Numbered from the stretch's first letter, positions 10,974-11,322 are shown. The stretch is DNA of 43,384 bases from a virus (IMGVR_UViG_2925908680_000005:1-43384); one strand, 5' to 3'. The notes: generated by a model from the letters alone, not told the origin. Made by a program: numbers and translations.

Positions 10974-10988
10974 TTACCTTTCGGGTAA
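10974..10988. promoter_or_regulatory. perfect TTACC-N5-GGTAA operator-like palindrome (TTACC TTTCG GGTAA)
   Basis: read directly; intergenic, upstream of the small antirepressor-domain gene. Confidence 0.6.
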
Positions 10989-11027
10989 TTTGCAAAACGT
11001 GCTGGATAGCAAACAAATTATTTGCTA

Positions 11028-11043
11028 CTGTATAAATATACAG
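11028..11043. promoter_or_regulatory. LexA (SOS) box CTGT-ATAAATAT-ACAG with TA/TT flanks
   Basis: taCTGTataaatatACAGtt closely matches the SOS box consensus taCTGTatatatatACAGta; 22 bp upstream of the 11065 start codon. Confidence 0.6.
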
Positions 11044-11064
11044 TTATTGCATGGAGAAGATAAG

Positions 11065-11322
11065 ATGCAGCAGTATCACTATCCACTGGAAGACGGATTT
11101 ACCGAAAGGATTCACACGCCGGGAGGCGTCAGGTCACTGGTGGAGGGATCGCACTTGATGAAATTACTCCGGGATCTCGATAAGGATGGATTTAATGTCG
11201 ATGGCCCACTTGCCGAACTGACTGCACTGATTAACTACGTCACCAGCTCACAGATGTCTATGCGGGATCTGCAAACACATCTCGACTATTGTGCCGAACA
11301 ATTACGAAAACAAACCAGATAA
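11065..11322 (+). CDS. small protein paralogous to the C-terminal domain of the downstream antirepressor (candidate SOS-inducible antirepressor)
   Basis: 85 aa from the ATG at 11065 (GGAG upstream); its sequence aligns with the C-terminus of the 11635..13657 product (shared pattern H.P.GV..L.E.S.LM.LL..L..DG..V.G..AELT...RD.QTH). Confidence 0.45.
   Translation: MQQYHYPLEDGFTERIHTPGGVRSLVEGSHLMKLLRDLDKDGFNVDGPLAELTALINYVTSSQMSMRDLQTHLDYCAEQLRKQTR

Follow-up and report, generated by a model that had tools for sequence, protein, structure and literature searches.

Can a prophage whose repressor appears to lack an autocleavage domain be brought under the control of the host SOS response by a small antirepressor gene? 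The question is raised by the region between a tail-fibre gene and a short divergent open reading frame in a 43,384-nucleotide stretch of viral DNA (IMGVR_UViG_2925908680_000005, positions 1-43384), which was analysed over its full length and is called the window below. A preliminary description of this stretch, made from the sequence alone, had noted a LexA box and an operator-like palindrome upstream of a gene for an 85-aa protein, and had suggested LexA-gated antirepressor induction. We conclude with considerable confidence that the locus is an orthologue of the Ant-Rep-LexA lytic switch of Salmonella phage SPC32H. For the phage of the window itself, we infer by homology that LexA binds the box, that expression of the small gene depends on the SOS response and that its product binds the repressor.

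The ant locus of a phiV10/ε15-like prophage

We assign the window to a phiV10/ε15-like (Uetakevirus) prophage of E. coli. DNA identity of the region is 93-98% to phiV10, vB_EcoP_ZX5 and other E. coli Uetakeviruses (ε15-like podoviruses), and the window shares with these relatives a gene order that consists of an O-antigen acyltransferase gene, the tail-fibre gene (minus strand), the small divergent open reading frame, a Bro-N gene and virion structural genes (minus strand). The position of the small gene, divergent from the tail-fibre or tailspike gene, is common to phiV10, SPC32H, ε15, Tyrion, BUCT554 and Klebsiella phages. Conservation within the locus was read from an alignment of the 195-nt tail-fibre/ant intergenic region in eight phages of Escherichia, Salmonella, Enterobacter and Klebsiella, and from a genome scan which brought the sample to 15 loci by adding prophages of Citrobacter, Erwinia, Superficieibacter, Pseudocitrobacter and Scandinavium. 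The features of the locus are as follows.

8542-10869, minus strand: tail-fibre/tailspike gene, an open reading frame divergent from ant and annotated as tail fibre in phiV10
10918-10945, minus strand: conserved block in the promoter region of the tail-fibre gene, reading CCATATGTGGTT-N5-GGTAATAGAAT along this strand, with columns invariant in the eight phages
10974-10988, no strand assigned: predicted Rep operator TTACCTTTCGGGTAA, in the region from which the tail-fibre gene and ant diverge
11003-11008, plus strand: putative -35 hexamer TGGATA of the ant promoter (Pant), followed after a 17-nt spacer by the -10 hexamer TACTGT (11026-11031) inside the LexA box
11026-11045, no strand assigned: predicted LexA (SOS) box TACTGTATAAATATACAGTT, with CTGT-N8-ACAG at 11028-11043, 27.8 bits
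11053-11059, plus strand: Shine-Dalgarno sequence of ant, GGAGAAG, read from the sequence, its GGAG invariant in the eight-phage alignment
11065-11322, plus strand: ant, coding for the 85-aa antirepressor, orthologue of SPC32H Ant, ε15 gp19 and phiV10 p24

A mechanically delimited frame of 126 aa starting at 10942 was rejected as the gene, since its additional stretch would span both regulatory sites (operator and LexA box) and the alignment to the crystallised homologue starts only at residue 2. RNA folding of 11038-11110 gave a z-score of -0.43, with no sign of a structured leader. Note that, elsewhere in the window, a tRNA gene (30544-30617, plus strand, 73.3 bits) lies amid the minus-strand structural genes, and the SPC32H record has a tRNA-Arg annotated at the equivalent place.

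Orthology of the small protein and of the repressor to the SPC32H Ant-Rep pair

When searched against the sequences of solved structures, the 85-aa protein matched chain E of PDB entry 5D50, named 'Anti-repressor protein' (86 aa), with an E-value of 1.4e-46 and with residues 2-84 aligned to residues 3-85. Entry 5D50 contains the complex of Rep and Ant from Salmonella phage SPC32H, and identity to the annotated SPC32H ant product is 86.7% (about 87% over 83 aa). The orthologous gene in the SPC32H GenBank record is annotated 'ant: anti-repressor protein' and is likewise divergent from the tailspike gene. At the level of sequence, the match to chain E thus settles the identity of the 85-aa protein as an orthologue of SPC32H Ant.

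The putative target of Ant is coded for by the following gene.

38895-39479, plus strand: rep, coding for a prophage repressor of 194 aa, homologue of SPC32H Rep

This protein matches the 'Repressor' chain of the same complex, 5D50_A, over its full length (residues 1-190, E-value 3.5e-42), with a further match to the C-terminal domain of the repressor in 5D4Z. The repressor of ε15 is likewise referred to 5D50_A in the record of that phage. The suspicion that the repressor lacks an autocleavage domain is borne out by Pfam, where its matches are of the HTH type only (HTH_3, HTH_26 and YdaS-like) and include no peptidase S24 domain. The phage records with an Ant homologue and those with a Rep homologue, 35-37 in number, are essentially the same set.

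The window's Rep is 99.5% identical to the Rep of phiV10 and ZX5 and 42.7% identical to that of SPC32H. Divergence from SPC32H is therefore asymmetric, with Ant at 87% identity and Rep at only 43%, and it is across this large divergence of one partner that we infer the contact between Ant and Rep. A published account (PMC9638917) describes SPC32H Rep as tetrameric on DNA and tetrameric Ant as binding two Rep dimers.

The LexA box upstream of ant

Scoring with a LexA position weight matrix, as the preliminary description had proposed, used 25 E. coli SOS boxes as an informal reference list. The box upstream of ant is indeed near consensus, with a score of 27.8 bits and a heterology index of about 1.1, and the 43 kb contain no other strong site: the runner-up reaches 14.9 bits, and 20 shuffled versions of the window peak at 11 to 20 bits. 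The runner-up, at 34427, falls inside this shuffle range and was rejected as a second LexA site. Relative to this informal list, the score of the box is level with those of umuDC, sbmC and dinD and is second-highest among the 25 reference sites. The box differs from TACTGTATATATATACAGTA at 2 of 20 positions and combines an AT-rich spacer and TA/TA flanks with a score within the range of proven sites, as given by the same informal reference. Its location upstream of the ATG is as first described, but the distance of 22 bp needs correction, as 19 nt separate the end of the box from the ATG (11065).

The pattern CTGT-N8-ACAG stands at a fixed offset from the ATG in 12 of the 15 loci (SPC32H, ε15 and ten others), with at least five different 8-nt spacers among them. 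Half-sites that are kept around a variable spacer are the pattern expected under selection on the LexA half-sites. At two Klebsiella loci and the Superficieibacter locus, ATGT replaces CTGT in the left half-site, and in these cases (Klebsiella phages BUCT711 and Kp4865-1 and the Superficieibacter prophage) the ATGT half-site comes with a 1-nt shift. This variant suggests either weaker LexA control of ant or a control adapted to the host.

A natural comparison is provided by SPC32H and SPC32N, which differ by two bases in the 4.2 kb compared, one of the two turning the ACAG of the box into AAAG. Kim and Ryu are said to have described SPC32N in 2013 as a lytic variant of SPC32H, with a two-nucleotide difference between the phages, and the mutation in the LexA box reportedly results in constitutive Ant and a lytic phage.

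Rep operators in the window

The palindrome that had been noted upstream of the LexA box is perfect (TTACC-N5-GGTAA, 10974-10988) and ends 37 nt before the box. Its interpretation as a phage operator is upheld by its recurrence and by annotation in a relative. Specifically, perfect TTACC-N5-GGTAA occurs nine times in the window against 0.03 expected, a count reached in 0 of 100 shuffles, and when one mismatch is allowed there are 13 copies against 0.56 expected. The ε15 record (NC_004775.2) carries seven sites annotated 'protein_bind: repressor, lysogeny', all of which read ATTACC-N5-GGTAAT and one of which lies upstream of gp19. Perfect copies number 11 in ε15 and 10 in SPC32H, as compared to the nine of the window. 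From these sequence matches we identify TTACC-N5-GGTAA as the Rep operator family. The copy beside ant has the same offset, -91 relative to the ATG, at each of the 15 related loci, and the others in the window are listed here.

11354-11368: second predicted Rep operator near ant, in the promoter region of the isrK-C4-Bro-N module
33023 and 30207: predicted Rep operators near the terminase and portal operons
36360 and 36422: predicted Rep operators in front of a RuvC-like gene
38825-38839: predicted Rep operator between rep and a divergent cro-like gene, with a one-mismatch copy at 38777
39537-39551 and 39599-39613: two predicted Rep operators at the early promoter downstream of rep (TTGACA...TAATTA), with equivalents annotated in ε15

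The half-sites TTACC and GGTAA are the same across these phages despite the divergence of Rep, which raises a question of immunity specificity. A further one-mismatch copy, TTACCTTTTGGGTGA at 7381-7395, precedes the O-antigen acyltransferase gene (7425-8540) by 30 nt. The latter is a lysogenic-conversion gene for which expression is expected in the lysogen, and a repressor site at this place is puzzling.

The promoters served by the operator beside ant

The operator at 10974-10988 may serve the tail-fibre promoter, ant, or both. Our best guess for Pant, and it is only that, is TGGATA-17-TACTGT; its -35 hexamer lies in T.CTGGA.A (11000-11008), which apart from the sites themselves is the one stretch from operator to LexA box that is invariant in the eight phages. 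A sigma-70 scan returned no hexamer pair with 9 or more of 12 matches at the LexA box. We also considered TTGCAA (10990) as a -35 hexamer and TATACA or TACAGT as a -10 hexamer, and discarded them for want of a conserved partner hexamer.

One reading, to which we give somewhat less than an even chance, makes the operator an upstream element of the divergent tail-fibre promoter and leaves ant gated by LexA alone. One fixed arrangement recurs on the minus strand before three genes or operons, those for the tail fibre, the gp3-like/portal proteins and the RuvC-like protein. It consists of an operator and, after 28 to 41 nt, the element C(A/T)TATGTGGTT, with GGTAATA or a complete operator 5 nt further on and then an ATG. 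The corresponding tail-fibre blocks AACC..ATATG.AT and TATTACC are invariant in the eight phages. The element has the following other copies.

30145-30166 and 36381-36391, both minus strand, and 7338-7351: further copies of C(A/T)TATGTGGTT, which recurs 28-41 nt from Rep operators (the minus-strand arrangement as such is seen at about 30145-30166 and 36360-36391)

Orientation of the element relative to the downstream gene is constant across the copies, and a so far undescribed activator may bind to it. (IHF sites are annotated nearby in ε15.) Also in favour of a role at the tail-fibre promoter, a terminator separates the late operon of ε15 from ant, so that the tail-fibre gene needs a promoter of its own, and if Pant is TGGATA-17-TACTGT then the operator is centred near -57, beyond the core promoter. 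However, the strict composite pattern has only three matches in the window against 0.5 expected. A role on the plus strand is moreover made plausible by the operator at 11354, which is flanked by promoter-like sites (TTGAAA-17-TATATT at 11326-11354 and TTTACA-17-CATAGT at 11370-11398) and which abuts a plus-strand -35 hexamer just as the operator at 10974 abuts TTGCAA (10990-10995).

It is rather unlikely, in our estimate, that ant is under dual control by LexA and, through the adjacent operator, by Rep. Under such control Ant would relieve Rep at its own promoter, giving a positive-feedback loop of commitment, and also at the Bro-N module. The operator does keep a constant distance to both the LexA box and the ATG in 15 of 15 loci; the operator at 11354, before isrK-C4-Bro-N, shares the flanks ATATTTACCTTT..GGTAA.TTT.CA with it; and SPC32H Rep is reported to be tetrameric on DNA (PMC9638917). 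Yet the constant spacing is explained equally well by a tail-fibre promoter located within the same 195-nt region. Dual control also sits poorly with the report that mutation of the LexA box alone gives constitutive Ant in SPC32N.

A second predicted antirepressor gene interrupted by an insertion sequence

Downstream of ant is a module with the following features.

11405-11481, plus strand: Hfq-binding sRNA of the isrK type with its terminator (Rfam RF01394; 74.7 bits, gathering score 50)
11500-11586, plus strand: C4 antisense RNA of the P1 immI type (Rfam RF01695; 79.5 bits, gathering score 45)
11635-11904, plus strand: 5' part of the Bro-N antirepressor gene, with its ATG at 11635 (Pfam Bro-N, E-value 1.3e-16)
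11905-13235, minus strand: IS2 insertion (IS3 family) of 1331 bp, with open reading frames of 136 and 301 aa and a 5-bp target duplication, CTATC
13241-13657, plus strand: 3' part of the Bro-N gene, coding for an Ant-like C-terminal domain

The insertion at 11905-13235 is putatively assigned to IS2 from its end sequences. Its break-points were mapped against phiV10, and when the insertion is removed together with one copy of CTATC an open reading frame of 228 aa is restored, of which residues from about 145 to 228 make up the C-terminal domain. The Bro-N protein matches PHROG 130, 'anti-repressor Ant', in addition to PHROG 450. The loop of the C4 RNA, CCUUUGUAG, is complementary over 9 nt to CUACAAAGG at 11618-11626, a segment that covers the Shine-Dalgarno sequence of the Bro-N gene. 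These matches identify the Bro-N gene as coding for a second predicted antirepressor, preceded by an operator and by isrK and C4 RNAs. As the gene is split by IS2, this second antirepressor is probably inactive in the prophage of the window. The isrK-C4-Bro-N module is present in phiV10 and Tyrion and absent from SPC32H, ε15 and BUCT554.

A broader scheme would combine an ant gene with two inputs (LexA as the trigger and Rep as the feedback), a Bro-N second-stage antirepressor that has been lost to IS2, and CATATGTGGTT beside the operators as an activator site for structural-gene promoters. We regard this combination as doubtful. If it were true, the Bro-N protein with its Ant-like C-terminus would amplify the switch or commit the phage to it, and after the insertion of IS2 the LexA-Ant pathway alone would remain in the window's prophage.

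The relation between the two genes bears on the status of ant itself. As had been noted from the sequence, the 85-aa protein is paralogous to the C-terminus of the Bro-N protein (43% identity over 74 aa, E-value 8e-17), and PHROG 450, which has the label 'unknown function', is matched by both. A Pfam search found no family for Ant; a sub-threshold match to DUF724 (17 bits against a cut-off of 38) was disregarded as a domain assignment. It is nevertheless very improbable that ant is a non-functional remnant of a duplicated Bro-N C-terminal domain, as this paralogy, the lack of a Pfam family, the PHROG label and the name 'hypothetical protein' in E. coli genomes (among the matches listed) might suggest, for the protein has its full length and shares 87% identity with a functional antirepressor of known crystal structure, and the gene is present without a Bro-N neighbour in SPC32H, ε15 and BUCT554 and is intact, Shine-Dalgarno sequence and start codon (ATG) included, at 15 loci in about ten genera.

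We find it just as hard to believe that the box is a chance AT-rich palindrome and that ant stands outside SOS regulation: the bare pattern CTGT-N8-ACAG is not rare (three in the window against 0.63 expected, with three or more in 3 of 100 shuffles), but the copy upstream of ant is the only one of the three with an AT-rich spacer and the right flanks, its 27.8 bits compare with at most 14.9 elsewhere in the window and at most 20 in shuffles, and its position is kept in 12 of 15 loci while the spacer varies and is the place of a one-base change between SPC32N and SPC32H.

Comparison with known antirepressor systems

The precedent that had been suggested among Salmonella and E. coli prophages exists, and can be made more specific. 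The closest system is that of SPC32H, a podovirus of the same genus (Uetakevirus), whereas systems of the Gifsy/186 type are functional analogues only. In SPC32H, Ant is 87% identical to that of the window, Rep is homologous over its full length, ant is divergent from the tailspike gene, the LexA box is equally far from the ATG, and the operators have the half-sites TTACC and GGTAA in common with those of the window. The window thus contains, by homology and motif, the features of the SPC32H type: an Ant homologue, a Rep homologue free of S24, a LexA box and a position divergent from the tail-fibre gene. There are also differences. Identity falls to 43% for Rep, the two phages have different tail fibres and hosts (E. 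coli for the phage of the window), and the window's phage has an extra Bro-N antirepressor module beside ant that SPC32H does not have. The orthologous genes of ε15 (gp19) and phiV10 (p24) are called 'hypothetical protein' in their records rather than antirepressor, and the LexA box is unannotated there, although the ATTACC-N5-GGTAAT repressor sites of ε15, including that upstream of gp19, are identical to those of the window.

GfoA, GfhA and GftA of Gifsy-1/2/3, Tum of 186 and AntC of N15 follow the same logic, in which a non-cleavable repressor is paired with a small antirepressor behind a LexA box and cleavage of LexA brings about induction (PMC3121763, PMC7380047). These antirepressors differ from Ant in genomic position and are likened to it by function alone; the Pfam and PHROG matches of Ant include none that names the Tum or Gifsy families. 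Kim and Ryu reportedly found SPC32H Ant to be structurally distinct from the antirepressors of sipho- and myoviruses.

Two other systems, P1 immI (c4-icd-ant) and the isrK-orf45-anrP region of Gifsy-1, resemble only the neighbouring Bro-N module, with which they have in common an operator at the promoter, isrK or C4 upstream and a C4 loop complementary to the ribosome-binding site of the antirepressor (PMC4825925). Unlike in these systems, the antirepressor of the module is a Bro-N fusion with an Ant-paralogue C-terminus and has presumably been inactivated by IS2. Finally, the immI region of P22 (mnt-arc-ant) also has an antirepressor beside the tailspike gene of a temperate podovirus, but the window is without mnt or arc homologues, the predicted control is by LexA and not by Mnt and Arc, and Ant, at 85 aa, is unrelated in size. 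P22 ant mutants are still SOS-inducible (PMC7380047).

The proposed lytic switch and its meaning

LexA-gated induction of an antirepressor, as the preliminary description had it, is supported by the orthology of Ant and Rep to the 5D50 pair, by the conserved LexA box, by the base change in the box of SPC32N and by a review of such systems (PMC7380047). According to this proposal, host LexA in the lysogen would occupy the SOS box at 11026-11045, which is predicted to overlap the ant promoter or to sit immediately downstream of it, and LexA bound at this place would keep ant silent. Rep, with no autocleavage domain, would meanwhile hold the early, late and accessory promoters through the TTACC-N5-GGTAA operators. 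DNA damage would then activate RecA and lead to self-cleavage of LexA, the 85-aa Ant would be made, and Ant would bind Rep and take it off its operators, resulting in lytic growth. The same order of events (LexA self-cleavage, Ant synthesis and inactivation of the repressor) is given for Salmonella prophages, SPC32H included, in the review, which cites Kim & Ryu 2013 (PMC7380047). Phage ZX5, which resembles the window closely (Rep 99.5% and the ant region 95% identical), reached a titre of 10^9 PFU with mitomycin C as compared to about 10^7 PFU/mL by spontaneous release (PMC9782041). We regard this titre as indirect support for an SOS-driven switch.

A switch of this kind is already known from Salmonella phage SPC32H, and the window represents its rediscovery in a close relative, with no new mechanism. 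The Ant-Rep-LexA switch of SPC32H was reportedly described by Kim and Ryu in 2013 and by Kim and co-workers in 2016. Of 5426 complete E. coli genomes, 531 contain the ant locus (window 10870-11330), and the gene is called 'hypothetical protein' in every E. coli genome among the matches listed. A 2022 study of ZX5 treats only the Bro-N protein as an antirepressor and does not mention SPC32H (PMC9782041). The practical value of the finding is thus one of annotation, in that a characterised antirepressor has been left as 'hypothetical protein' or 'unknown function'. Naming ant would explain how phiV10-like prophages of E. coli, those of O157 strains too, can be SOS-inducible without a cleavable repressor.
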